From positions 155,866-219,865 of the forward strand of contig CAVYQG010000002.1 of the NCBI GenBank assembly GCA_963770595.1: 64,000 nt of DNA, given 5' to 3'. Under the pieces are notes generated by a model. The model ran no database searches. It was not told the origin of the DNA and was given only the letters and a program-made list of their open reading frames with translations. Shown here piece by piece: positions 21,682-40,931 of this stretch. Source of the DNA: an uncultured Actinomycetes bacterium (GTDB lineage: Bacteria > Actinomycetota > Thermoleophilia > Gaiellales > Gaiellaceae). Positions within the stretch are counted from its first letter, which is position 1. Each line of letters opens with the position of its first letter. The position numbers and the translations under genes were made by a program.

Positions 21682-22077
21682 TCACTCCTCGACGAACTCG
21701 ACGGTCGTGCGCCCGGAGACGACGAGCCGCCCGCGGTCGTACCAGCGGCCCTCGAAGCGGTGCCAGCCGGCCGCGAGGCCGCCGGGAAAGTCCGCGAAGC
21801 TGTGCTTGCTCACGGGCCGCCCGCTCTCGACGCGGAGATCGGTGACGAGCACGATGCGCTCGCCGTCCACCTCGAGCTCGAACCGCGTGTCGTCGTCGAG
21901 TGCGGACACGTCGTCGTCCGCGTCGCCCGGCTCGCGGGCGAACCCGTAGCCGATCCAGAACGGTGCGCCGGCGGGGTAGACGGCGGGCGTGACGGAGCCG
22001 GGGAAGATCCCGATCCGGTCTCCGGGACGGCCTGCGAGCTCCGATCCGGGTGGCGTGACGAGGACGAAGGCTGCCAT
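21682..22077 (-). CDS. Hypothetical cytoplasmic protein downstream of the S8 protease gene
   Basis: 131-aa ORF of normal composition with no signal peptide, 86 nt after the protease stop and without a heptad promoter of its own. Confidence 0.55.
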   Translation of the reverse strand: MAAFVLVTPPGSELAGRPGDRIGIFPGSVTPAVYPAGAPFWIGYGFAREPGDADDDVSALDDDTRFELEVDGERIVLVTDLRVESGRPVSKHSFADFPGGLAAGWHRFEGRWYDRGRLVVSGRTTVEFVEE

Positions 22078-24263: not shown

Positions 24264-27200
24264 GTGGCAATGGGTGCAGAGCGCCGGGCAGGCGATGACG
24301 AGCTCGAGATCAGGCTTCTCGGCCCGCTGGAGGCGCTGAGAGGCGGAAGCGCGGTCGCGCTCGGCGGCCAGAAGCCGCGGGCGCTTCTCGCGGCGCTCGC
24401 GCTGGACACCGGCCGCGTCGTCTCAGTGGACGCTCTGATCGAGGATCTGTGGCCGGGCGAGGCGCCGGAGACGGCCCCGCACGCCGTGCAGGTGTACGTG
24501 TCGCAGCTCCGCAAGGCGCTCGGGCCGGTCATCGCGACGCGCCCGCCCGGCTATGCGCTCGAGCTCGAGCGCGACCGGATCGACGTCCACCGCTTCCAGC
24601 GGCTGGGCGATGACGGCCGCGCCGCACTGAACGCCGGCAGCCCCGAGCTCGCCGAGGGCGCGCTCCGCGACGCTCTCGCGCTCTGGCGCGGCCCCGCGCT
24701 CGCCGACTTCCTGTACGAGCCGTTCGCGCAGAACGAGATCGCGCGGCTCGAGGAGCTCCGCACGGTCGTGCTCGAGGAGCGGATCGACGCCGACCTCGCC
24801 CTCGGCCGCCACGCCGAGCTCGTCTCCGAGCTCGAGGGCCTCGTCGCGCGCGCAGCCGCTGCGGGAGCGGCCGCGCGCGCAGCTCATGCTCGCGCTCTAT
24901 CGCTCCGGCCGGCAGGCAGATGCGCTGGCCGCGTACCGCACGGCGCGCGAGACTCTCGATCGAGGAGCTCGGCATCGACCCCGGCCCGGAGCTCCGCGAG
25001 CTCGAGGCCGCGATCCTGCGCCAGGACGAGTCGCTGCTCCTCCCCGAGACGGCGCCGGTCAAGCCCGCGATGCAGTTCCGCCGGCTCGTCACGATCCTCT
25101 TCGTCGACGTCGTCGAGTCGATGGCACTGGCGGAGGCGCTCGACCCGGAGGCGCTCGGACGCGTGCTCCAGAGCTACTTCGAGACCGTGTCTGCGGCGCT
25201 CACCCGGCATGGCGGGACGGTGGAGAAGTACGCGGGTGACGCCGTGATGGCCGCGTTCGGTATTCCCGTCTCGCACGAGGACGACGCGCTGCGCGCCGCA
25301 CGCGCTGCCCTCGACATCCGGGTCGGGATCGCGGCGCTCAACGAGCAGCTCGTGCAGAAGCACGGAGTCGGGCTCGAGATCAGCGTCGGGATCGAGGCCG
25401 GTGAGGTCGTCGCCACGCCGACCGACGCGCGGCAACGCCTCGTGACAGGCGAGGCCGTGGGGATCGCGGCGAAGCTCGAGCAGGCGGCCGCTGCGGACGA
25501 GATCGTCGTCGGCGCTCTGGCCGGCCGGCTGATCGACCACGTCGCGACGCTCGAGCCGCTCGGAGAGATCGCGATCAAGGGCAAGCGTGATCCGGTGACC
25601 GGCGTACCGGCTGGTCGAGTTGCGCCCCGTCGGGTCGGCCTTCGACGAGCGCCAGGACGCGCGACTCGTCGGCCGCAAACGCGAGCTCGCGACGCTGCGG
25701 AGGACACTCAAGCGCTCGGTCGACGGCGCGGCCGTCAGCGTCGCGGTCGTCGTCGGTCCGCCCGGAGTCGGCAAGTCGCGCCTCGCCGCGGAGCTCACCG
25801 GCCGCGCCAAGGGCGTCACGACGCTGTGGGGCCGCTGCCTCTCCTATGGCGAGGGCATCACGTACTGGCCGCTGCGCGAGGCGCTCGAGCAGGCGGGCGC
25901 GGGGGAAGAGCGTGACGCAGTCCTCGCGGCGCTCGACGCCGAGACGCCCCCGTCCGGCGCCCGAGACCGCGTGGCTCTTCCGCCGCTTCTGCGAGGCGAC
26001 CGCCGGCGAGAAGCCGCTCGTCCTCGTCCTCGACGACGTCCACTGGGCCGAGCCGACCTTTCTCGAACTCGTCGAGCACCTTACGGACAAGGGCGTGGGG
26101 CCGATCGCCGTGGTCTGCCTCGCGCGCGAGGAGCTCCTCGAGGACCGCCCCGCGTTCCTCGAGGGGCGCGTGAACGTCGATCGAATCGTGCTCGACGCGC
26201 TCTCTGCGGAGGACACCGACTCGCTCCTCGACGGCCTCGGCGGGACGGTCCTCGAGTCGGATCAACGCGTCCGCATCGTCGAGACCGCGGAGGGGAATCC
26301 GCTCTTCGTCGAGCAGCTCCTCGCGCTCGCGCTCGAGGGCGGCCTCGCCGAACGTCCGCTTCCTGCGACGATCCAGGCCCTGCTGGCGGCGCGCCTCGAC
26401 CGGCTCGGCCCCGGCGAGCGCGCGGTGCTCGAACGCGGATCGATCGTGCTCAGGAACTTCACCCTGGACGACGTCGCGGCGCTGGTCGAGCCCGAGGCCG
26501 CGCCGACCGTAGGGGCGCACCTCGATGCCCTCGTGGCTCGCGGCTTCCTGCGTCCCCTCGCGGACGATGCCTTCCGCTTCCGCCACGTCCTCGTCCAGGA
26601 GGCGGTCTATCGCGCCGCTCCGAAGCGGCTGCGGGCGGAGCTGCACGAGCGCTTCGCAGGCCGGCTGGACGCCGACGTGCCGGATCTCGCCGACCTCGAC
26701 GAGTTCGTCGGCTACCACCTCGAACGGGCGTATCGGCTGCGGGTCGAGCTGGGCGAGTCCGATCGGCGCGTACAGTCGCTGGCCGAGGACTCGGGCCGAC
26801 GGCTCGGCGCTGCGGGCTTCCGCGCGCTCAAGCGCGGAGACATGTCCGCGACGGTGAACTTGCTCGACCGCGCTGTTGACCTGCTTCCGCGCGGCGACGA
26901 GGCGCGTCACGAGCTCCTGTGCGAGCTCGGGATCGCGCGCGATGCCTCGGGCGACCTTGAACGTGGCACCGACGACTTTCTGGCCGCGATCGACGGCGCT
27001 CGGGCCGCAGGGCAACGGCGGGTCGAGCTTCGGGCTCGCATCGAGGCGGCATATGCGCGGCTCCTCGGCGAGCCAGAAGGAGCGGCACGGGATCTGCTCG
27101 TCCTGGCGAAGGACGCTGTCCCGACGTTCGAGGCACTCGGCGATGAGCGAGGGCTGGCGCGCGCGTGGCTCCTGATCGGTTACGTGCGCGGAGGGATTCA

Positions 27201-28032
27201 CGGAGACCATGCTGCGTGGGAGCAGGCGGAGGAGCGTGCGCTCGGCTACTACCGAAGCACTGGGTTCCCACCCGCGACGTGCATGCAGCAGATCGCTGCA
27301 GCCGTCTACTGGGGTCCGACTCCCGTGGCGCACGGGATCGAGAAGTGCTCGAACTTGCTCGAGGAGCACGCCGCTGGCCAGTTCGGACGCGCGGCGGTCA
27401 TACCGTTCCTCGGCGGGCTCCACGCACAGGCTGGCGACTTCACGGAGGCGCGCCTGCTCATAGACGAGGCAGCCGGGACACTCACCGATCTCGGCGCCGC
27501 TGCGACCGTGATGGTCTTCTGTGGAACCGTGCGAGCGGACGTCGAGCTACTCGCCGGCGAGCTCGAGGCCGCGGAGGCGACGCTGCGCGAGCAATGCGAG
27601 TTCTTCGAACGGATGCGGAATCGTGGCACCTTGGCGGTCAGAGCAGCGAAGCTCGCCGAGGCGCTCTACCGGCAGGGACGGCTCGAGGATGCCGAGCAAT
27701 GGGCAGACGTCGCCCGATCCAACACGTCGAGCGACGATCAGAGCGCTCTGCTGGTCCTCGGCCCCGTGGAAGCGAGGCTTCTTGCACGACGCGGCGAGCT
27801 CTCCGAGGCTCGCGACCTGGCCGAAGAGGCTGTGCGCCTCGCGGACCGCACCGACGGGCTGAATCTGATCGCCTTCGCGCGGCTTGCGCTTGCCGAGGTG
27901 CTCGGCGCAGCCGATCTCGTCGACGAGGCTCAGCGTACGATCGCGGAGGCGATCGATCTGTTCGAACGGAAGGGCAACGTTGTCGCGGCCTCGCAGGCTC
28001 GTGCGCTCCTGGGCGTCGAGGTCACCACATGA
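24264..28032 (+). CDS. Multidomain regulator: SARP wHTH + BTAD + class III adenylate/guanylate cyclase + AAA/STAND ATPase + TPR; four frame breaks (~24850, ~24956, ~25601, ~25958)
   Basis: The ATG at 24270 has a GAGGAG SD. wHTH: IRLLGPLEALRGGSAVALGGQKPRALLAALAL...VYVSQLRKAL. BTAD: ALALWRGPALADF...LMLALYRSGRQADALAAY...LGIDPGPELRELEAAIL. Cyclase: VTILFVDVVES...GGTVEKYAGDAVMAAFG. Walker A VVVGPPGVGKSRL; Walker B LVLVLDDVHWAE. Long helical repeat C-terminus. Confidence 0.8.
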
Positions 28033-28063
28033 CGAGGGAGGCCCAACGAGCGGGCCTCCCTCG
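28033..28063. terminator. Bidirectional terminator hairpin between the regulator and the convergent mini-gene
   Basis: Perfect 12-bp stem CGAGGGAGGCCC/GGGCCTCCCTCG with 7-nt loop. It begins 1 nt after the regulator's TGA and ends 20 nt beyond the mini-gene stop. Confidence 0.7.
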
Positions 28064-28083
28064 TAGCTTCAGTGTGTCGCGCA

Positions 28084-28194
28084 CTACCCGCCCTGCGGGC
28101 CGCCGTCGGCATATGCGACGAACGGAGCCGCGAGCGCGAGCAGACCGACTGCGAGCACGACGAGCGTGCGGTGCAGTGAAGTGACCTGGCGCAT
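28084..28194 (-). CDS. 36-codon secreted pre-peptide (MRQVTSLHRTLVVLAVGLLALAAPFVAYA|DGGPQGG)
   Basis: Strong SD GAGAGGAGGG 5 nt before the ATG. Canonical n-h-c signal peptide with an AxA site that leaves a 7-residue tail. It has its own heptad promoter and its own terminator. Confidence 0.5.
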   Translation of the reverse strand: MRQVTSLHRTLVVLAVGLLALAAPFVAYADGGPQGG

Positions 28195-28230
28195 CGTTCC
28201 CTCCTCTCGGGTTCTCTGGGTGCGCCGGTC

Positions 28231-28284
28231 ACGCTCGAGCCGACCGCTAACCGCCCGACCACAGACGGCTAACGGATCGCTAAT
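28231..28284 (-). promoter_or_regulatory. Type II phased-heptad promoter (ATTAGCG / GTTAGCC / weak / GTTAGCG -N8- GAGCGT)
   Basis: Minus-strand heptads at 28278-84, 28267-73, 28256-62 (weak) and 28245-51, all on an 11-bp phase. Hexamer at 28231-36. Upstream of the mini-gene. Confidence 0.5.
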
Positions 28285-28370
28285 AACTCGTGTCGCGTCA
28301 ATGCAATTCCGGCGCTCGATTTCCATGCGCCGGATGCTCGAATTTCACGAGCTATTTCACATCGGAATAA

Positions 28371-28398
28371 TCATGATTTCTCGTCGGAGAAACCATGA
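28371..28398 (-). terminator. Hairpin downstream of the GtrA operon
   Basis: TCATGATTTCTC-GTCG-GAGAAACCATGA (12-bp stem, one mismatch), 32 nt after the gtrA-like stop and followed on the minus strand by TTATTCC. Confidence 0.45.
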
Positions 28399-28429
28399 TC
28401 TTGAGCGAGTGAGGAGGTAGGGAAATGTC

Positions 28430-28828
28430 CTACGCGGCGTCCGGGCCAAGCCGGAAGGCGAAGCGCTTGCTCAGCACGAAGGAGAGTGGGACGAGGAGCG
28501 TTAGTGCGAGCGCCTGGGCGGGCCTCGGGTCGATCTCGAGGGCCTCGACGAGTCCCGCGAGCAGGACGACCGTGAGGCACGCGACGACCGCGCCGACCGC
28601 GACGTACCGGACGTAGGCGCCCACGAAGCCGTCGCGGGAGAGCCCGAACGTGAAGTAGCGGTTCCCCAGGTACATGGCCGTGTTCGAGACGACGTAGGCG
28701 AGAACCGATGCGGCGAGGTACCAGGTTCCGAGGCCGAACAGCGCGGTGAACGCGAGCACGTTGAGTGCGAAGCCGCCGCTTCCCACGACGACGAACCTGG
28801 CCGGCTGAGCGAGCCGCAACGCCATCAC
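28430..28828 (-). CDS. GtrA family membrane protein
   Basis: RFVVVGSGGFALNVLAFTALF...YVVSNTAMYLGNRYFTF...LSFVLSKRFAF, with four TM segments typical of the GtrA family. Confidence 0.85.
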   Translation of the reverse strand: MMALRLAQPARFVVVGSGGFALNVLAFTALFGLGTWYLAASVLAYVVSNTAMYLGNRYFTFGLSRDGFVGAYVRYVAVGAVVACLTVVLLAGLVEALEIDPRPAQALALTLLVPLSFVLSKRFAFRLGPDAA

Positions 28829-29721
28829 GCGATCGACGGTCGCAGCGCGCGCACGGGCTCCGAGCGCGACGCCTGGCGGAGCGTCCGGTCGAGCAGTGCG
28901 ACCAGGCGGGCGAGCCCCGGGCGAACGCGTGGCTGCACGTGGAGGAGTGCCGGGGTCACGGTCAGGCGAACGTCGCGTCCGGCCTCGGTGAGCGCGAGCG
29001 ACTCGTCGACGGGGAAGAACGGGTCGTGCGGAGACGACGCGAGCTCGACCGGAGCCGTCACGGCGCCGATGCGCGAGAGCGGCGAGAGCTCCTCGACGAG
29101 CGCTCGCGTTTCGGGCGAAAGCGCGGCGTAGAGCTCGTCGAAGCGTGCGGGATCGCGGTTGGCCAGGAGGTCATGGACAGCGGCGTCGTCCGGCGCCGAC
29201 ACGGCGAGCGATCGCGTCGCCGCGCGCGCGAGCAGCGGCGCGGCATCGAAGGGGCGGTCGCCGTAGAAGCCCGTGGTCGCGAGCCGCAGGACGTTCCGGA
29301 GGCTCGCAAAAGGGGCGATCCCCGCCACCGCCGTCACGCGGTCCGCGAGCCTCGGGTCGCCGGCCGCGAGGATCGCGAGCCCGGCTCCCGTCGACGCGCC
29401 GATGAGCGCGACCTCCTGGCTCGCCGCCCGCGCGACCGAGACGAGCGCGTCGATCGTCTCCGGTGTGACCTCGCCTTCGCGCACGCGTGGGAGCTCCGGC
29501 GCGACGGCGACGAAACCTGCGTCGGCGAGTGCGCCGAGGAAGCGCCCGACCGCGGGCTGCTCGACCCCGAGCGGCGTTGCGGCATTCACGTACACGACCA
29601 CCGGCCCAGAGCCGCGTCGGGGCCGCGCGACGAGCGCCTCGACACCTGCGACGTGACCGCGCTCGCACGCGCGAGCGTTGCCGTGCAACGTCGCGGCGAG
29701 AACGGTGAGCGCGCGGATCAC
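28825..29721 (-). CDS. Alpha/beta hydrolase fold protein (dienelactone-hydrolase-like)
   Basis: GTGA overlap with the upstream FAD gene stop (start VIRALTVLAA). VVVYVNAATPLG...ALIGASTGAGLA (nucleophile-elbow-like GxSxG)...SSPHDPFFP. The longer ORF to 29991 is an out-of-frame overlap. Confidence 0.65.
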   Translation of the reverse strand: MIRALTVLAATLHGNARACERGHVAGVEALVARPRRGSGPVVVYVNAATPLGVEQPAVGRFLGALADAGFVAVAPELPRVREGEVTPETIDALVSVARAASQEVALIGASTGAGLAILAAGDPRLADRVTAVAGIAPFASLRNVLRLATTGFYGDRPFDAAPLLARAATRSLAVSAPDDAAVHDLLANRDPARFDELYAALSPETRALVEELSPLSRIGAVTAPVELASSPHDPFFPVDESLALTEAGRDVRLTVTPALLHVQPRVRPGLARLVALLDRTLRQASRSEPVRALRPSIA

Positions 29722-34012: not shown

Positions 34013-35038
34013 TCACGGCCGTCCGCCTTCGTTCTGGACGCTGAAGCCGAGCCGGCCGACGTCCCGGTTCCCGGCCGTGTCGCTCGCCACCACGACCAGC
34101 TCGTAGTCGCCGTTACGGAGCGCGCTCGTGTCGAAAGTGGAAAGCCTGAACAGGTACCGGCCGGTGAGGAAGCGCTCCTTGCGTCCGGAGAAGACGGGCC
34201 AGTTCTGGTGCGTGCCGCGCGCGAACGTCGTCCAGAAGCCGTCGTTCTTCGGCACGACGCGGCGAACGTCGCGCGCTATCCGCCGACCGACGACGACGCG
34301 CCCCGAGGCGTCCTCGATGCTCCACGCGACGAGTGCCGGGGTGACCGGGAAGCCGTGCCAGCGCCCGGGGACGGGCAGCGCGGGCATGTCGATCGCCTCG
34401 GCCGCGAGGACGACCCGGCCCCGCACGTGCTCCGCTCCGCCCGCGCCGCGAATCGAGACTCCGACGACCTGCGGGACGGTCGAGTCGCGGTACGGCGTCA
34501 GGCGTCCGGAAGCGAGCGGGCTCACGGCGCGATTTCGCTCGAGGTGCGTCAGGTGCACGTGCTCGCGCTTCTGCTGGACGAAGCCGAGGAGGGTCTTGCC
34601 GGCGACGGCGTGCTGTCCCACCCGCGCTGCCGGATCGATGTGCCAGTACTGGAACGAGCGTCCGTTCCCGCAGTCCACGGTAACGCGGCCGCCGCGCGCC
34701 CGGACGACCGTGCCCGAGCTGACGGCGTAGACGGGCGACCCGTCGGGCGCCGAGATGTCGAGGCCCTGGTGGAACGAGAAGCCGCCCCGGCCCTGGAGGA
34801 TCGTTCGCTCCGAGCGCTCACCACGGAACACCGTGCGGGGATCGCCGAACGAGCCCCTGATCGGGTGCGCGCGGTCGAACGGCTTGACGGGCCAGCCGTA
34901 GGCGCCGGTGCAGCCGGTGCCCGTCGAGACCGCCAGTGCGGAGGTCGCGACGGCGAGGCCGAGGAGCGCGATCAGGACGGCGAGCGCGGTCGATGCGACG
35001 AGGGCTCTTGCGGTTGAGGTGGTGCGTGCGGTAGCCAT
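34013..35038 (-). CDS. Secreted M23 family metallopeptidase (paralog 1)
   Basis: Signal MATARTTSTARALVASTALAVLIALLGLAVATSALA. FHQGLDISAP (HxxxD) and EHVHLTH (HxH) motifs. Conserved C-terminal extension shared with paralog 2. Confidence 0.8.
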   Translation of the reverse strand: MATARTTSTARALVASTALAVLIALLGLAVATSALAVSTGTGCTGAYGWPVKPFDRAHPIRGSFGDPRTVFRGERSERTILQGRGGFSFHQGLDISAPDGSPVYAVSSGTVVRARGGRVTVDCGNGRSFQYWHIDPAARVGQHAVAGKTLLGFVQQKREHVHLTHLERNRAVSPLASGRLTPYRDSTVPQVVGVSIRGAGGAEHVRGRVVLAAEAIDMPALPVPGRWHGFPVTPALVAWSIEDASGRVVVGRRIARDVRRVVPKNDGFWTTFARGTHQNWPVFSGRKERFLTGRYLFRLSTFDTSALRNGDYELVVVASDTAGNRDVGRLGFSVQNEGGRP

Positions 35039-35045
35039 GGCCCGC

Positions 35046-35099
35046 ACGCTCGGAGGGGCCCCAAACCGGCCGGCAACCGCCCCCTAACCGCTCGCTAAC
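35046..35099 (-). promoter_or_regulatory. Type II phased-heptad promoter (GTTAGCG / GTTAGGG / GTTGCCG / GTTTGGG -N8- GAGCGT)
   Basis: Heptads at 35093-99, 35082-88, 35071-77 and 35060-66 (11-bp phase). Hexamer at 35046-51, 7 nt before ATG 35038. Confidence 0.55.
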
Positions 35100-35115: not shown

Positions 35116-36102
35116 TCAGCGCCCCAGCACGAGCGGAACCCGCCGGGTCGCGGTGTTTCCCCGCGTGTCGCGCACGGAGACCTCGACGAGGTACGCGCCC
35201 CCGCGGAAGCGGGCGACATCGCGGCTGAGGACGACCCTGTACCGGCCCGGTGCCCGGACGTGGTTCTGACTCGTCCCGGGCGCCCACACGTCGTCGAAGG
35301 CCGAGGCGGGCGGGATCGTGAGCCTGACGTCGAGGGCGGTGCTCCAGTCGGAAACCGGCCGGCGCTTCGCGTCGAGCAGGCGCCAGCGGACGAGCGCGGG
35401 CATGACCGGGAGGTCGTGCCACGGCCTCGGAACCGCGAGCGGCGTCTCGTCGTACGCCTCGGCGACCAGGTGCCTGCCGTCGGTGGCGACCGATCCGACG
35501 GTCGGCCTCGTTCGGTCGACGTACGGGCCCAGTGCGCCCGCTCGGAGCGGGTTCAGGTAGCGGCCGTGGCGCATCTCCGAGAAGTGCACGTGCGCGTACG
35601 GGGCCTCGATGTGACCGATCAGGGTCCTGTACGCGACCACCCGCTGGCCGGTCCTCACGGTCGGGACGACGTGCCAGTAGCTGAACTCGGCCCCGTCCGG
35701 CCCGGAGATCAGGACGGTCGTGTCGTGGAGCGGGTGGATCGACGCGGTGCCGGTCAGCGTTGCGTACACGGGCGTCGCGTTCGGCGCGGAGATGTCGACG
35801 CCGAAGTGGAACTGCCTCGACTGCTGGTGGTTCGAGATGCGCGGGTCGCCGAAGAAGCCCCGGACGGGGTGCTGTGCGCGGAACGGCTTGACGGGCCAGG
35901 CGTATGCGTACGGAGCGGCGCTCGCACTCCGCGCCAGGCGTGGAGCTGCGGGGCGGTCGTGCGGTGCGGCGAGCAGGCCCGCTCCCACCGCAGTCTGCGT
36001 GGGCACGAGTTGCGCGGCCATCAGGACGGCGCCCGCGGTGGCGACCGCGGCGCCGGTGAGAACGATCGGCCGAGACGTGAGACGTACGCGTGGAGTCGTC
36101 AT
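35116..36102 (-). CDS. Secreted M23 family metallopeptidase (paralog 2)
   Basis: Start at ATG 36102 (MTTPRVRLTSRPIVLTGAAVATAGAVLMAA). FHFGVDISAP and AHVHFSE motifs. Collinear with paralog 1 throughout. Confidence 0.8.
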   Translation of the reverse strand: MTTPRVRLTSRPIVLTGAAVATAGAVLMAAQLVPTQTAVGAGLLAAPHDRPAAPRLARSASAAPYAYAWPVKPFRAQHPVRGFFGDPRISNHQQSRQFHFGVDISAPNATPVYATLTGTASIHPLHDTTVLISGPDGAEFSYWHVVPTVRTGQRVVAYRTLIGHIEAPYAHVHFSEMRHGRYLNPLRAGALGPYVDRTRPTVGSVATDGRHLVAEAYDETPLAVPRPWHDLPVMPALVRWRLLDAKRRPVSDWSTALDVRLTIPPASAFDDVWAPGTSQNHVRAPGRYRVVLSRDVARFRGGAYLVEVSVRDTRGNTATRRVPLVLGR

Positions 36103-36109
36103 GCCCGGC

Positions 36110-36163
36110 ACGGTCGGAGGGGGCTCCAACCGGCCGGCAATGGCCGACTAACCGGGGGCTAAC
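36110..36163 (-). promoter_or_regulatory. Type II phased-heptad promoter (GTTAGCC / GTTAGTC / ATTGCCG / GTTGGAG -N8- GACCGT)
   Basis: Heptads at 36157-63, 36146-52, 36135-41 and 36124-30. Hexamer at 36110-15, 7 nt before ATG 36102. Confidence 0.55.
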
Positions 36164-36291: not shown

Positions 36292-37920
36292 GTGTCAGTT
36301 GTGACGTACGAGTTCAGGATCCTCGGTCCCCTCGAGGTCTCGGGTGAGACCGGTCCCGTCGCGCTCGGAGGGCAGCGGCAACGCGCGCTCCTCGCGGCGC
36401 TCCTGATCGAGGCCGGCCGCGTCGTGCCGACTGAGCGCCTCGTCGACCTCCTGTGGGGCGAGGCCGCGCCGAGGACCGCGACGACGTCGCTCCAGAACTC
36501 GATCTCACGGTTGCGGCGCGAGCTCGGCGCAGACCTCCTCGAGACGCGTGCGCCCGGCTACGTACTCCGCGTCGACCCGCAGCAGGTGGACGCGCATCGC
36601 TTCGAACGGCTTCTGCGCGACGCGCGCGGCTCGGAGGCCGCCGCGCGGCGCGAGACGCTGCGCGAGGCTCTCGCGCTCTGGCGAGGCCCCGCCCTCGCCG
36701 AGTTCGCCTTCGAGCCGTTCGCGCAGGCGGAGATCCGCCGGCTCGAGGAGCTCCGGCTCGTCGCGCTCGAGGAGCGGATCGATGCCGACCTCGAGCTGGG
36801 CCGCCACGAGCGACGTCGTGGGCGAGCTCGAGGCACTCGTCGGCGAGCATCCGCTGCGGGAGACCTTCAGACGGCAGCAGATGCTCGCGCTCTACCGATC
36901 GGGCCGCCAGGCGGAGGCGCTCGACGCGTACCAGGACGCTCGCTCCCGCTTCGTCGAGGAGCTCGGCATCGAGCCCGGGCCGGAGCTCAAGCGTCTCCAG
37001 GCGGAGATCCTCGGCAGGAGGCGGGAATCGCCGCGCCCGGCGCGACCTCGCCCGACGACCGACGACGAAGCCGAGATCGTGGCGGCGCTCCTCGCCGGCC
37101 GGGTCGTGCCCGTGCTCGGGCTCGACGGCGTCGGCGACCTCGCCGCGCACCTCGCGTCGGCGTTCTCCGTCCCCGACGACCGGCCGGTCGACCTCGCGCG
37201 CGTCTCGCAGTACGTCGCGACGATGCAGGGCTCGGGGCCGCTGTACGACGAGCTGCACGCGCTCTTCGAGGCCGCCACCGAGCCGAGCGCGCTGCACCGC
37301 TTCCTCGCCCAGCTGCCCGCGCTCCTCCGCGAGCGTGGCGCGCCGCACCAGCTCATCGTGAGCACGAACTACGACCTCGCGCTCGAGCGGGCGTTCGAGG
37401 ACGCGGACGAGGAGCTCGACATCGTCACGTACGTCGCCAGCGGTCCGCATCGCGGTCGCTTCTGGCATCGGCCGCCCGGCGAGCCGCCGCGCCCGATCGA
37501 CGTTCCCAACACGTACGCGACGGAGCTCTCGCTCGAGCAGCGGACGATCCTGCTCAAGCTCCACGGTGCCGTCGACCCGCTCCCCGAGCGCGAGTGGGAG
37601 AGCTTCGTCATCACCGAGGACGACTACATCGACTACCTCGGGCAGCTCCGAGCTGGCGGCAGTCGTCCCCGTGTCGCTGGCCGCCAAGCTGCGGCGCAGC
37701 CACTTCCTCTTCCTCGGCTACGAGATGGCCGACTGGAACCTGCGCCTGATCCTCAACCGCCTCTGGGGGGAGCGGCCGATCGCGCTATCGCTCGTGGGCG
37801 GTGCAGAGCTCGCCGAGCCCGCTCGCGCAGGCGTTCTGGCGCCGATACGACGTGACGCCGCTCGACGTCGAGCCCGAGGCGTACGTCGCGCTGCTCGGAC
37901 GGAGGCTGGAGGCGGCATGA
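36292..37920 (+). CDS. SARP wHTH + BTAD + SIR2-like (SIR2_2 type) domain protein; three frame breaks (~36808, ~37645, ~37790)
   Basis: wHTH: FRILGPLEVSGETGPVALGGQRQRALLAALL. BTAD: ALALWRGPALAEF...QMLALYRSGRQAEALDAY...LGIEPGPELKRLQAEIL. SIR2-like: GRVVPVLG, HQLIVSTNYDLALERAF, ILLKLHGAV, FVITEDDYIDY, HFLFLGYEMADWNLRLIL. Ends ...LGRRLEAA with TGA 37918-37920. Confidence 0.75.
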
Positions 37921-40900
37921 GCGCCGACGCGCCGTTCGCCCGTACAAGGGCCTGAGCGCGTTCGAGGACTCGGAGGTCGACGCGCTCCTCTTCTTCGGCC
38001 GCGAGCGCGAGCGGGAGATCGTGGTCGCGAACCTGATCGCCTCGCGGCTGACGGTCCTGTACGGACCGAGCGGCGTCGGCAAGTCGTCGCTGCTCCGCGC
38101 GGCGGTCGCGCGCTCGCTGCGTGAGCTCCCCGAGCAGCCGCTCGTCGTCGTCTTCTCGCGCTGGAGCGACGATCCGGCCGCCGCGCTCGCCGAGACCGTT
38201 GCCGAGGCCGGTCGGAGGGGGGACGAACGGCACGGCTGCCGAGGCGCTCGCGCGAGCACAGGTCGACCGCGACGTCTACCTCGTGCTCGACCAGGCGGAG
38301 GAGTACTTCCTCTACCACGCCGACGACGGTGGCATCGGCTCGTTCGCGGAGGCGCTGCCGGCGCTGCTCGCGGCGCCGCGCCGCGTCAACGTCCTCGTCT
38401 CGCTGCGCGAGGACTCGCTCGCGAAGCTCGACCGCTTCACGGGCCGGATTCCCGGGCTCTTCGCCAACACCTCCGCCTCGACCGCCTCGACCGCGACTCG
38501 GCGCAGCGCGGCGATCGTGCGGCCCGCTCGAGCGCTTCGCCGAGCTGACGGGTGACGACGTCACGGTCGAGCCGGCGCTCGTCGAGCGGGTGCTCGACGA
38601 GGTCGGCGCGGGCCAGATCGAGCCTCGCGCTCGGCGGGCTCGGAGCCGTCGAGGGCGCCGAGCGACGCGGCGCGGATCGAGGCGCCGTACCTCCAGCTCG
38701 TCATGCAGCGGATCTGGGAGGAGGAGCGAGCGGCCGGCTCGGACGTGCTCGCGGCTCGAGACGCTCGAGCGGCTCGGCGGCGGCGCAGCGCATCGTCGAG
38801 GAGCACCTCGACGGGCGCTCTCGACGAGCTGTCGCCCGCGCAGCAAGGACGTCGCCGCGCGCCTGTTCAACCACCTCGTGACGCCGTCGGGAACGAAGAT
38901 CGCGCACGAGGTCTCGGACCTCGCCGACTTCGGCGGCGTTCGCCGTGGACGAGGTCAAGCCGGTGCTCGCGAGTCGCTCGCCGAGCGGCGGATCCTGCGC
39001 TCGCGTCGAGGAGGGCGGCGGGGTCCGGTACGAGATCTTCCACGACGTGCTCGCGGAGCCGTGCTCGCCTGGCGCGTCGAGCGCACGAGGCCGAGCGCGA
39101 CCTCGAGCTGCAGAAGCGCGACTCCGACCGTCGGCATCGGCGCTTGCTCGGCGTCATCGCCGTCGGGGCGGTGCTTCTCGCGACGATGGGCGCGATAACG
39201 GCGTTCGCGCTCACGCAGCGCTCCGAGGCCAGGAACCAGGCGCGCGCGTCGAAGGCGAACGAGCTCGTGGCGGTGTCCGGCGCCGAGCGCGCTCGCGACC
39301 CGGAGCTCAGCCTCGCTCTCGCGCTCGAGGCGTCCCGCCTCGATCCGAGCGAGAGCTCCGAGCAGGCGCTGCGCCAGGCGCTCAACCAGTCGCGCATGCG
39401 AGGCGTCGTGGACCTCGGTGAGCCGGTGGTGGGCGCAGCTCCGCTCGGGCGCCTCGTTCTGGGTGTCTCCGAGAGCGGGGAGCTCGTGGAGGCGAATCCG
39501 GCCACCGGCGAGATCCTGGGGCGCGTGGACACGGGCAGCCCGGCCGCCGATGTGTCGTTCTCGACCGACGGGACGCCGCTCGTCACGGGCCGAGACGGCA
39601 GCGTGCTGCTGGTCCGGGGAGGCGACGCGATCGCCGTCCCCGGGGTCACGGAGGCTCGAGCGGCGTCGATCTCGCCCGACGGCAGCCTCGCGGCGGTCGT
39701 CGAGCCTCGCGGCGTGCGGCTCGTCGACGTCGAGTCCGGCTCGGTGCTCGAGTCGTACGACCATCCAGGCGCGATCTCGGCGGCCGTGTCGTACGACAAC
39801 CGGCGGGTGGCGACGGGAGGGGCGGACGATCAGGTTCACATCTGGTCGGGTCAGAGCGGTCGCCGCGTCCACACGCTCACCGAGCACGACGGGAACGCGG
39901 TCGCGCTCGAGTTCAGCCCTGACGGCGCCCGTGTCGCGACCGCCTCGAGCGACGGCGTCGGCCGGCTCTTCCGTACCGCCGACTGGGGCCTCTCGTCCGT
40001 CGTCACCGGCCACACGCACTCGTTGCGGGACATCGCGTTCAGCTCCGACAGCGAGCACGTCGTCACCGCGGGCGAGGACGGGACGGCGCAGGTCTTTCAC
40101 GTAGACACCGGAGACCAGCTCGTCGTCCTCGCGGGCAGCGACGACTGGGTGATGTCCGCGGCCTTCGCAGGCGGGGTCGGGAGCCCGATCGTCACGGCAG
40201 GCCGGGACGGGACGATCCGCGTCTGGGATTCCGTCTTCCAGCCGGAGCTTGAGCTGCTCACCGAGCTTCCGAGCGCGGTGGTGTACGTCGAGTTCGACGA
40301 CGACGGCCGGCTTCGCGCGACGACGGACGTCGGGCGCGCACACATCCTCGACCCGGCTACCGGCGAGGTCCTGGAGGTCGTGCGGGGCGCGAAGCCGAGA
40401 CGCGACCAGGGACCGAGCGGGGAGGTCGCGACGATCCGCGGAAAGACGGTCGTCCTCCGGACGGGGTCGGGCACCCGGACGCTCGAAGGGCATCGCGACC
40501 GCGTCACGGGCGTCGACTTTTCCCCGGACGGTGCGCTGCTCGTCACGTCGAGCAGGGACAGCGACGCTCGCATCTGGAGGGTCGCCGACGGCGAGTCGAT
40601 CCAGGCTCTGCAGCACAACACGGCCGTGCACGACGCCCGGTTCAGCCCGGACGGGAAGTGGGTCGTCACGGCTGCGTTTCGCGGCAGCCTGTGGGACGTG
40701 AGTGACGGCTCCAACCTCTTGCGCCTGCAGGGCCACGACGGGACGCTCACGACCGCGACCTTCGACCCCACGGGACACACGGTGTTCACGGGCGGGGTCG
40801 ACGGCACCGTGCGGACCTACGAGTGCGGGCTATGCGGCGGCCTCGACGAGCTCGTCTCGCTGGCGGAGGCGCGCCTGGCTGCCACCCGCCGCGGCCTGAC

Positions 40901-40931
40901 GCCGGACGAGCGCGAGCGGTATCTCCGCTAG
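37917..40931 (+). CDS. nSTAND-like P-loop NTPase + TM helix + WD40 repeat protein; about 17 frame breaks between 37932 and 39080, none afterwards
   Basis: ATGA overlap with the upstream stop. RPYKGLSAFEDSEVDALLFFGREREREIV. Walker A LYGPSGVGKSSLL; Walker B VYLVLDQAEEYF. PYLQLVMQRIWEEE. TM LLGVIAVGAVLLATMGAITAFAL. WD40 blades (HDGNAVALEFSPDGARVATASSDGVGRLF, GHTHSLRDIAFSSDSEHVVTAGEDGTAQVF, GHRDRVTGVDFSPDGALLVTSSRDSDARIW, GHDGTLTTATFDPTGHTVFTGGVDGTVRTY). Confidence 0.8.

Follow-up and report, generated by a model that had tools for sequence, protein, structure and literature searches.

A 36-codon gene for a putative secreted peptide and its convergent SARP-cyclase-AAA-TPR regulator: a candidate two-gene signalling module of Gaiellaceae

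Overview of the module

The 64,000 bp stretch analysed here, called the window in the following, belongs to an uncultured Actinomycetes bacterium of the family Gaiellaceae (contig CAVYQG010000002.1, positions 155,866–219,865). It contains a mini-gene of 36 codons which converges with the gene of a large regulator composed of a SARP part, a class III cyclase, an AAA_16 NTPase and a TPR region. We propose that the two genes form a signalling module of Gaiellaceae. The mini-gene product may be a polymorphic secreted peptide sensed by the regulator, which would be a STAND receptor of the AfsR/MalT type; such a system would be RRNPP-like in its working with no membership of the RRNPP family. On the comparative evidence presented below, we give this reading slightly less than an even chance. 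The gene family, the pairing of the two genes, the hypervariable cassette spanning their facing ends and the promoter shared with other genes are solid, whereas we infer the ligand-receptor step. The principal features are the following.

28084..28194, minus strand: mini-gene coding sequence, ATG at 28194-28192, 36 codons, TAG at 28086-28084, product MRQVTSLHRTLVVLAVGLLALAAPFVAYADGGPQGG
28199..28208, minus strand: Shine-Dalgarno site GAGAGGAGGG, 5 nt ahead of the mini-gene ATG
28108..28194, minus strand: predicted Sec/signal peptidase I signal peptide, codons 1-29, with n-region MRQVTSLHR, h-region TLVVLAVGLLALAA and c-region PFVAYA
28087..28107, minus strand: hypervariable tail DGGPQGG, putative mature heptapeptide
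24264..28032, plus strand: SARP (Trans_reg_C + BTAD) - class III cyclase - AAA_16 - TPR regulator

Conservation of the mini-gene

An earlier interpretation of this DNA (the sequence-only reading) had described an open reading frame (ORF) with a Shine-Dalgarno site, an ATG at 28194 and a stop at 28084, and all of these were found at those positions. The homologue search, for which the 36-aa peptide was padded with seven upstream residues to 43 aa, returned 167 relatives, all of them unnamed or annotated as "hypothetical protein". They were located in metagenome-assembled genomes of Gaiellaceae (genome scan) and in soil metagenomes, and exactly the same 36-aa product had been called independently in public assemblies. 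The true products measured 36-37 aa, within a range of 33-37 aa for the relatives. Database entries of 50-76 aa corresponded to the same ORF called from an in-frame start farther upstream, and the 76-aa versions were rejected as they include conserved promoter DNA in the translation. An 80-aa extended ORF, obtained mechanically up to the ATG at 28326, was rejected likewise, its extension being translated conserved promoter DNA. The 36-aa form was favored because the Shine-Dalgarno site, kept as GGAnnGGAGGGAAC across all loci, and the conservation support only this form. Searches of the peptide against Pfam and NCBIfam gave no match.

In total, 30 loci (labelled by L and a number) were recovered, about 22 of them distinct. 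Scans of metagenomes and genomes with the peptide alignment yielded only six and four loci, respectively, because the query is short. The sequence-only reading depended on the ORF being conserved in relatives, which proved to be the case: when 16 loci were aligned codon by codon, none had lost the start, the frame or the stop, and the indels were whole codons. The ratio of nonsynonymous to synonymous divergence (dN/dS) over 22 distinct sequences was 0.18 in codons 8-29 and 0.77 in codons 1-7. Judged from these alignments, the mini-gene is a real, conserved gene under purifying selection. Having only 36 codons, in a GC-rich genome of the kind where spurious ORFs abound and next to a regulator gene which is frameshifted in the window, the ORF could be a chance ORF or the decaying remnant of a signal peptide. 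This is scarcely credible in view of the 167 relatives, of the conservation of start, frame, stop, Shine-Dalgarno site, promoter and hairpin, and of the low dN/dS, the in-frame indels and the existence of a tandem paralogue described below.

The silent-site divergence (pS) of the signal-peptide codons (28108-28194) was 0.24, about half that of the N-terminal part of the regulator (24264-26700; 0.43-0.55). The rare A/T-ending codons GGT, TCA, ACT and GCA were retained across loci. These two features point to a constraint at the nucleotide level or to recent homogenisation.

A conserved signal peptide followed by a variable tail

The anatomy of the signal peptide was assessed by a rule-based check. 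The predicted n-region carries a charge of +2, the h-region comprises 14 aa with a mean Kyte-Doolittle value of 2.7, a proline is present at position -6 and A-Y-A occupies positions -3 to -1. The n-h-c signal peptide with an AxA cleavage site announced in the sequence-only reading thus agreed with the rules and left a tail of 7 aa. In 105 cluster representatives, alanine was invariant at -3 and -1, and position -2 was Y, L, S, C, N or T. Alanine at -3 and -1 with a free -2 is the classical pattern of signal peptidase I. The 22-residue core HRTLVVLAVGLLALAAPLVAYA existed in 17 variants in these representatives, one of which accounted for 61 cases. The tail existed in 68 distinct variants of 7-8 residues, built on a D-G-G-P-x-x-G-like or G-P-G scaffold.

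Identical tails were encoded by different DNA. The eight codons of DGTGPGPG showed four silent differences, and three DNA versions each were seen for DGGPKGG and for TGPGPSGG. This set was chosen for identical peptides and is an illustration, not a test. The tail does not appear to be unconstrained because its length is fixed at 7-8 residues, its scaffold is retained and the peptide is preserved across silent changes within classes. The constant length and scaffold, together with the silent recoding, speak for function over drift.

Other classes of exported or processed peptides were considered. A lipoprotein or twin-arginine translocation (Tat) signal was rejected as the window peptide has neither a cysteine nor an RR motif. 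A precursor of a ribosomally synthesized and post-translationally modified peptide (RiPP), including the thiazole/oxazole-modified microcins (TOMM), was also rejected: there is no conserved enzyme neighbor, the upstream genes vary and the Gly/Pro-rich tails contain no cysteine. The sole link to RiPP/TOMM was a sub-threshold match of TIGR03903 to the NTPase region of the regulator (67.7 bits for a cut-off of 705).

A second tandem mini-gene of 33-34 aa was present between the first mini-gene and the regulator in five loci; the window has no second copy.

L002/L003 8223-8324, L016 8224-8325, L029/L030 6245-6349: tandem mini-gene copies

The paralogue, exemplified by MKARALMLFFTLVALLALAAPLVALADGGPTGG, has its own Shine-Dalgarno site GGAGGAGGTG and its own hairpin. 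Its n- and h-regions differ from those of the first mini-gene, and the end of the product is shared (...LLALAAPLVA, then L or Y, then A, followed by the tail DGGPTGG), corresponding to the c-region and the tail scaffold. A 5'-truncated remnant of the tandem mini-gene was visible in L023 at about 1400-1490. (GT)n/(TG)n microsatellites were located just upstream of the second copy in L029 (about 6170-6200) and of the remnant in L023 (about 1385-1400); they could be a source of phase variation, or a trace of the deletion by which the L023 copy lost its 5' part.

The regulator is related to AfsR and MalT

Intact orthologues of the regulator, 1220-1252 aa in length, were found in L007-9, L014, L016, L017, L028 and L029, with the Pfam order Trans_reg_C + BTAD + Guanylate_cyc + AAA_16 + TPR. 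The AAA_16/AAA_22 matches covered residues 464-617 and the Pfam matches to TPR_MalT were weak. For the SARP domain, an OmpR-type winged helix plus BTAD at the N-terminus, the best matches in PDB were AfsR structures (8hvr/8k60/8jke, E = 1e-27). The regulator of L007-L009, the most divergent lineage (8163-11825; 1220 aa), showed no cyclase in the precomputed Pfam list, and this region is 46% identical to that of the window.

The last 420 residues of the regulator were modeled by AlphaFold2 (AF2) with 51 homologues. The model is a TPR superhelix of 21 helices with a predicted local distance difference test score (pLDDT) of 96.5. The Foldseek matches of this putative sensor included the peptide-binding TPR proteins LGN, Tom70 and APPBP2 with its degron peptide (TM-score TMq 0.72), as well as APC and MalT domain III (1hz4; TMq 0.59, TMt 0.66). 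The top 50 consisted of generic TPR superhelices with no RRNPP receptor among them, and a phmmer search of the sensor against the PDB sequences found no relative and no RRNPP protein. Since its SARP domain matches AfsR and its sensor fold matches MalT domain III, the regulator is a STAND switch of the AfsR/MalT type which has a class III cyclase in addition.

In the window, comparison with the intact orthologues by tblastn indicated that the regulator switches frame near 24848, 24957, 25600 and 25954, and is then uninterrupted for 690 codons, to 28029. The public record contains only a 706-aa C-terminal protein. The near-identical metagenome contig L001 showed 226 gap positions relative to the window in 19 kb, concentrated in the frame-switch stretch, and long-read assemblies, in which the gene calls are fragmented, are the source of many loci. 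The frame switches are probably assembly indels and not the sign of a pseudogene, because a second SARP gene of the window (SARP-SIR2, described below) is also frame-split, because the L001 indels fall in the same stretch and because the long-read gene calls are fragmented.

The two genes remain paired in a changing neighborhood

Loci with at least 400 bp past the mini-gene stop were considered informative. In all of them (21/21) the mini-gene was convergent with a SARP-cyclase-AAA-TPR regulator, as expected from the sequence-only reading, which had looked to the position of the small ORF beside homologous regulators. The other side of the mini-gene was variable. An FAD-oxidase/hydrolase/GtrA operon lies upstream of it in the window. 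In other loci its place was taken by a divergent pair formed by a HisKA_3 kinase and a GerE-type response regulator, by an M23 peptidase or by a HYR protein, and elsewhere also by a polysaccharide deacetylase, a Wzy_C + discoidin-domain protein or DMFA2_C. The mini-gene and the regulator are therefore the stable unit, since the other neighbor changes between loci. The segment 28430-34000 of the window and its counterparts, from M23 to the mini-gene, form a variable island with a cell-envelope content differing by locus.

The kinase and GerE-type regulator pair was divergent from or near the mini-gene in about half of the loci. As main receptor candidate the histidine kinase was rejected, being missing from many loci and having a membrane part which is not hypervariable: the kinases of L003 and L013 are 83-90% identical despite different mini-gene tails. 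Given its frequent absence and a sensor part whose variation does not track the tail, it is an unlikely receptor.

It is possible to imagine that the mini-gene product is not cleaved and remains a single-pass membrane protein, with the N-terminus inside and the tail outside, whose almost invariant helix would bind and modulate a membrane partner such as the multi-pass HisKA_3 kinase, an M23 enzyme, or a factor of secretion or membrane insertion. Small membrane proteins such as MgrB and SafA modulate kinases. The hydrophobic segment is conserved to a degree well beyond that of ordinary signal peptides (17 core variants for 68 tails, low dN/dS), the silent divergence of the mini-gene is half that of the regulator, and the kinase pair is frequently nearby. 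The invariant alanines at -3 and -1, the free -2 and the proline at -6 are nevertheless the pattern of a cleavage site and not a requirement of an anchor. The paralogue moreover differs in its h-region and keeps the same c-region and tail, and the kinase is missing from many loci and shows no co-variation of its sensor part. An uncleaved product is, in our opinion, improbable.

A hypervariable cassette spans the tail and the sensor

A single segment of about 1.3 kb is hypervariable, and both of its flanks are conserved.

26740..28107, strand not assigned: hypervariable cassette composed of the last ~430 regulator codons (TPR sensor), the hairpin and the mini-gene tail codons

Between loci, residues 1-800 of the regulator were 62-88% identical, and the last ~400 residues fell into deep classes with identities of 55-78% within and 35-47% between classes. 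The distances in the N-terminal and C-terminal parts were uncorrelated (Mantel r = 0.03). L007, for example, was an outlier in the N-terminal part and grouped with L010, L012 and L014 in the C-terminal part. The comparison of L010 and L017 gave the limits of the cassette. Their regulators were 74-96% identical up to residue ~800 and 35-51% beyond. At the DNA level, identity was 78-86% from -100 to +78 of the peptide gene, dropped to 40-60% from approximately codon 28 through the hairpin and the ~1.3 kb regulator 3' part to about +1400, and rose abruptly to 91-95% past the cassette. The breakpoints were sharp and corresponded to codons ~28-30 of the peptide, the predicted cleavage site, and to residue ~820 of the regulator.

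The tails were distributed according to the sensor classes. Class I sensors were associated with DGGPxxG heptamers (window, L007, L010, L012, L014, L023, L025) and with DGGLPTGH, class II sensors with DGTGPGPG and DGPGPGMG, and class III sensors with GDGGPxxx and NTGGPNGS. Tails of the DGG(L)P type were present in 8/8 class I loci and in no other class, and the distances of tail and sensor were modestly correlated (Mantel r = 0.30, p = 0.028). The dN/dS of the sensor between classes was 0.3-0.55 with silent sites near saturation, for which reason positive selection on the sensor is not demonstrable. From these values, the sensor classes are old alleles.

A phased-repeat promoter is shared with cell-wall genes

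The mini-gene promoter and related elements are listed below, with position weight matrix (PWM) scores for the two additional sites of the window.

28231..28284, minus strand: mini-gene promoter, 11-nt phased GTTAG direct repeats at 28284-28241
35038..35099, minus strand: phased-repeat promoter of M23 gene 1 (34013-35040), PWM 57.6
36101..36163, minus strand: phased-repeat promoter of M23 gene 2 (35116-36103), PWM 61.8
36292..37855, plus strand: SARP(BTAD)-SIR2_2 protein, the second SARP-domain protein, occupying two frames in the window; divergent from M23 gene 2
38703-40931, plus strand: nSTAND1-WD40 protein, after SARP-SIR2_2
L006 2065, L010 8710, L014 6710, L016 3109 and 4033, L017 6654, L019 5189, L028 3671 and 4709: motif sites in other loci

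The phased-heptad promoter which the sequence-only reading had placed at 28231-28284 does contain the repeats, in four 11-nt units (ATTAGCGATCC, GTTAGCCGTCT, GTGGTCGGGCG and GTTAGCGGTCG), and GTTAG repeats were conserved ahead of the mini-gene in most loci. A -10-like element, GAGCGT (28236-28231; second base A, sixth base T), lies 8 bp past the 3' heptamer GTTAGCG (28251-28245), and the transcription start is predicted near 28223. Around this element (28230-28250), GTCGG...CCGGC was replaced by CCTCC...GGAGG in L006, L014 and L019. This may be compensation within a 5-bp stem, formed by DNA or RNA, or a coincidence.

A search for the triple-TTAG pattern, for which 100 shuffles gave an expectation of 0, found two further sites in the 64-kb window, both directly ahead of the two M23 peptidase genes. 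The PWM scores of the phased repeats were 58-78, compared to a shuffle maximum of about -15; a search with the single decamer repeat remained at chance level. In other loci, the motif preceded M23 and polysaccharide deacetylase genes. In the M23 promoters the ATG is situated 7 nt past the -10-like GA(G/C)CGT, and the M23 mRNAs are for this reason probably leaderless. The true starts would be MATAR.. and MTTPR.., not the upstream GTG/TTG of the mechanical ORFs.

In SARP promoters the repeats are 11 or 22 bp apart, the 3' repeat is located 8 bp from the -10, and the SARP domains act as side-by-side dimers (PMC10936776). The geometry of the predicted sites ahead of the mini-gene and the M23 genes matched this rule. 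Two SARP proteins are candidate readers of the repeats, the adjacent regulator and the SARP-SIR2_2 protein divergent from M23. Intact orthologues of the latter measured 530-555 aa and were followed by the nSTAND1-WD40 gene. The two genes form a conserved pair upstream of M23 in the window, L014-L019, L026 and L028, and this pair resembles a defence-type SIR2/STAND pair with an additional DNA-binding SARP domain. PADLOC reported only cyclase-domain (PycC) and weak SIR2 (ThsA) similarity, with no STAND-defence model for the regulator and no model for the WD40 protein or the mini-gene peptide.

A model of the module and the points that weigh against it

In the model that we propose, the 36-aa product would be inserted into the membrane via its signal peptide, and signal peptidase I would cut after A-Y-A. 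The released Gly/Pro-rich peptide of 7-8 residues, DGGPQGG in the window, would accumulate outside the cell, be re-imported and bind the regulator on the concave side of its C-terminal TPR superhelix. The STAND family mechanism is ligand-gated oligomerisation, and class III cyclase domains need dimerisation. Binding would permit ATP-dependent oligomerisation, as in other STAND switches, and oligomerisation would unite the SARP domains, as side-by-side dimers on the 11-bp phased repeats, and the class III cyclase domains. The output would be transcription from the phased-repeat promoters together with cyclic nucleotide synthesis. The mini-gene promoter may be one of the targets, and so may the promoters of the neighboring genes for M23 peptidases and polysaccharide deacetylase. 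Tail and sensor would diversify jointly as exchangeable specificity alleles, in the manner of pherotypes. Export, cleavage, re-import and binding of the peptide, the identity of the SARP reading the repeats and the output are thus what we infer.

Several observations weigh against this model. The most conserved part of the product is the hydrophobic signal sequence and not the tail, which is unusual for a mere export signal, and at silent sites the mini-gene coding sequence (pS 0.24) has diverged half as much as the regulator. As a ligand, a Gly/Pro heptapeptide is chemically bland. The regulator of the window itself carries the four frame switches. The correlation between tail and sensor was not significant in a partial Mantel test controlling for the N-terminal distance (r = 0.23, p = 0.11). 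The tail and the sensor are 50-290 bp apart, and linkage alone could give their co-inheritance because the parts are separated by less than 300 bp. The sensor of L013 (tail DGTGPGVG) is only 40% identical to those of L015/16 (DGTGPGPG) despite similar tails, and an earlier comparison, with more noise, likewise gave similar tails and very different sensors for L004 and L019. The M23 promoters lie next to the gene of another SARP protein, SARP-SIR2. Finally, L007-9 and L023 keep the peptide-regulator pair without GTTAG repeats, and L007 is also devoid of nearby M23 and SARP-SIR2 genes. An autoinduction loop via the SARP domain of the regulator is doubtful because the pair is kept in these loci in the absence of the repeats.

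Part of these observations would be accommodated if the mini-gene were only an output, in the manner of afsS. In that case it would share a SARP regulon with M23 and the deacetylase and encode a small secreted or membrane factor for the envelope, without feedback on the regulator; the weakly constrained tail would hitch-hike in the cassette, and the TPR sensor would diversify for another cause, for example an unidentified or foreign ligand. Within the 64 kb the phased-repeat promoter is confined to the peptide gene and the two M23 genes. In other loci it stands ahead of M23 and deacetylase genes, and its geometry fits the SARP rule. AfsR activates its adjoining afsS, linkage accounts for the co-variation with the partial Mantel test being non-significant, and the locus carries the defence-like SARP-SIR2 and nSTAND1-WD40 genes. 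An output-only role does not explain why the tail is constrained in length (7-8 residues), in scaffold and across silent changes, nor why the pairing persists in L007, which has neither the repeats nor M23 and SARP-SIR2, and the regulator has no STAND-defence match in PADLOC. We consider this alternative unlikely, although it deserves serious attention.

Other elements of the locus

Several additional elements accompany the two genes.

28309..28333, minus strand: palindrome CCGGCGC-N11-GCGCCGG upstream of the promoter, kept in most loci, L007 and L023 among them, and varying in a compensatory manner in L015
28373..28396, minus strand: AT-rich inverted repeat ATGGTTTCTC-CGAC-GAGAAATCAT, kept in the L001, L002, L004/5, L010, L012 group
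28417-28433, minus strand: inverted repeat GTAGGA-N-TCCCTAC, conserved, overlapping the GtrA stop
28032..28064, strand not assigned: GC-rich hairpin with a 14-bp stem between the convergent genes, abutting the regulator TGA (28030-28032)
21682..22077, minus strand: 131-aa ORF accompanying the 5' side of the regulator in all loci

The AT-rich inverted repeat may be an operator. The 71-nt hairpin stretch had a folding energy of -35.3 kcal/mol (z = -2.8, RNAfold), and every locus possessed a hairpin at the same place with a different sequence in each. The sequence-only reading had described a 12-bp bidirectional terminator shared by the two genes. The stem-loop between the genes is indeed present, with 14 bp, but it has no U tract, and a simple terminator scan found no U-tract terminator. 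The same scan showed a weak sigma-70-like site on the opposite strand. An Rfam scan of 27500-29000 (E <= 1) detected no RNA family.

The mini-gene product was also envisaged as a membrane-damaging toxin, of the type I toxin or holin kind, which the STAND regulator would activate as an effector of abortive infection. It is short, hydrophobic, tightly regulated and adjacent to a STAND NTPase with a hypervariable sensor, in a neighborhood containing SIR2- and WD40-STAND genes. Against this, no antisense RNA, antitoxin or conserved antisense promoter was noticed and there was no Rfam match (E <= 1). The peptide has a canonical cleavage site, neither the regulator nor the peptide had a STAND or toxin match in PADLOC, and secretion agrees better with the strength of the Shine-Dalgarno site and with the co-regulation of cell-wall enzymes. 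A toxin is very improbable.

The 131-aa ORF had 215 relatives, all of about 130 aa. It gave no match in Pfam or NCBIfam and none in a PDB sequence search. Its AF2 model is an Ig-like beta sandwich (pLDDT 80), for which Foldseek found no informative match (best E 3e-3, TM < 0.5).

Relation to known systems

AfsR-AfsS is the closest homologous system, and RRNPP signalling is the closest functional analogue. AfsR activates the adjacent small gene afsS and binds its product (PMC10832544). Both systems have a SARP DNA-binding domain, a STAND NTPase with a C-terminal TPR layout, a very small gene immediately 3' of the regulator and, ahead of this gene, a promoter (predicted here) in which direct repeats with an 11-bp phase are placed 8 bp from a weak -10. 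The differences are however numerous. AfsS is a cytoplasmic, repeat-built protein of 63-87 aa encoded in the same direction as afsR, whereas the product described here has 36 aa and a predicted signal peptide, is encoded convergently and has no sequence similarity to AfsS. The present regulator has a class III cyclase between SARP and NTPase, its NTPase matches AAA_16 and not NB-ARC in Pfam, and no part of AfsR matches its TPR region in sequence. AfsR/AfsS is not known to have allelic cassettes.

The RRNPP systems of Firmicutes and their phages (PlcR-PapR, Rap-Phr, NprR-NprX, AimR-AimP) share with the module a small gene for a secreted pro-peptide beside that of a cytoplasmic TPR receptor (secretion and the receptor role being putative here). 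They also share a mature peptide of 5-8 residues from the C-terminal end (putative here), a receptor which is or controls a transcription factor, and the diversification of peptide and receptor into specificity types. RRNPP receptors, composed of a helix-turn-helix (HTH) or phosphatase part and TPR, have in contrast no STAND NTPase, SARP or cyclase, and show no sequence match or preferential fold match to this regulator. The genes are convergent here, and the host belongs to Actinomycetota, a phylum where such systems are not described (PMC10075063). Membership of the regulator in the RRNPP family was rejected for lack of homology to Rap/Rgg/NprR/PlcR/PrgX/AimR and for its NTPase-containing architecture. 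Of the RRNPP-like peptide/receptor idea put forward in the sequence-only reading, the pairing in all informative loci and the tail-sensor cassette are supported, and the family relationship is abandoned. Absent from that reading were the frame switches of the regulator in the window, the AfsR-AfsS parallel, the promoter shared with the M23 genes and the tandem paralogue of other loci.

The cassette recalls the pherotypes of agrBDC and comQXP, where a sharply bounded hypervariable segment of signal and sensor is inserted between conserved flanks and the deep classes are incongruent with the rest. The receptors in those systems are membrane histidine kinases, whereas the candidate receptor here is cytoplasmic, and their peptides are modified by a dedicated enzyme encoded inside the variable block, which was not seen here. 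MalT and other STAND-TPR factors share the alpha-alpha superhelix sensor (MalT domain III). MalT differs in binding maltotriose, in having a C-terminal LuxR-type HTH and in lacking a partner peptide gene.

Significance

Peptide quorum sensing by cytoplasmic receptors is regarded as a speciality of Firmicutes, and small molecules as the signals of Actinomycetota (PMC10075063). Actinomycetes possess thousands of large SARP/AfsR-like regulators of the NLR type; the signals activating them are unknown, and silent clusters have consequently been forced on by mutation (bioRxiv 10.64898/2026.09.02.748808). Our full-text literature searches found no such system described in Gaiellales and no peptide ligands for STAND-TPR regulators in Actinomycetota. 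We tentatively suggest, as a possibility which falls well short of probable, that the module could be the first genetically encoded peptide-pheromone system of Actinomycetota. For the first time, a self-made, secreted, unmodified 7-8-mer would be the activating ligand of an AfsR-like NLR/STAND regulator, with pherotype cassettes and with a cyclic nucleotide and cell-wall-lytic output controlling kin-specific lysis or competition.

The module offers a testable candidate ligand, an unmodified heptapeptide which can be synthesized, with dozens of natural allele pairs and a confidently modeled TPR domain. Even if the ligand idea fails, there remain a new conserved family of small proteins, a new cis-regulatory motif with a small regulon and a new SARP-cyclase-STAND architecture. 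For Gaiellaceae, an abundant uncultured family of soil bacteria, the cassette would represent a pherotype-like mode of evolution linked to cell-wall hydrolases, hinting at kin discrimination or competition.

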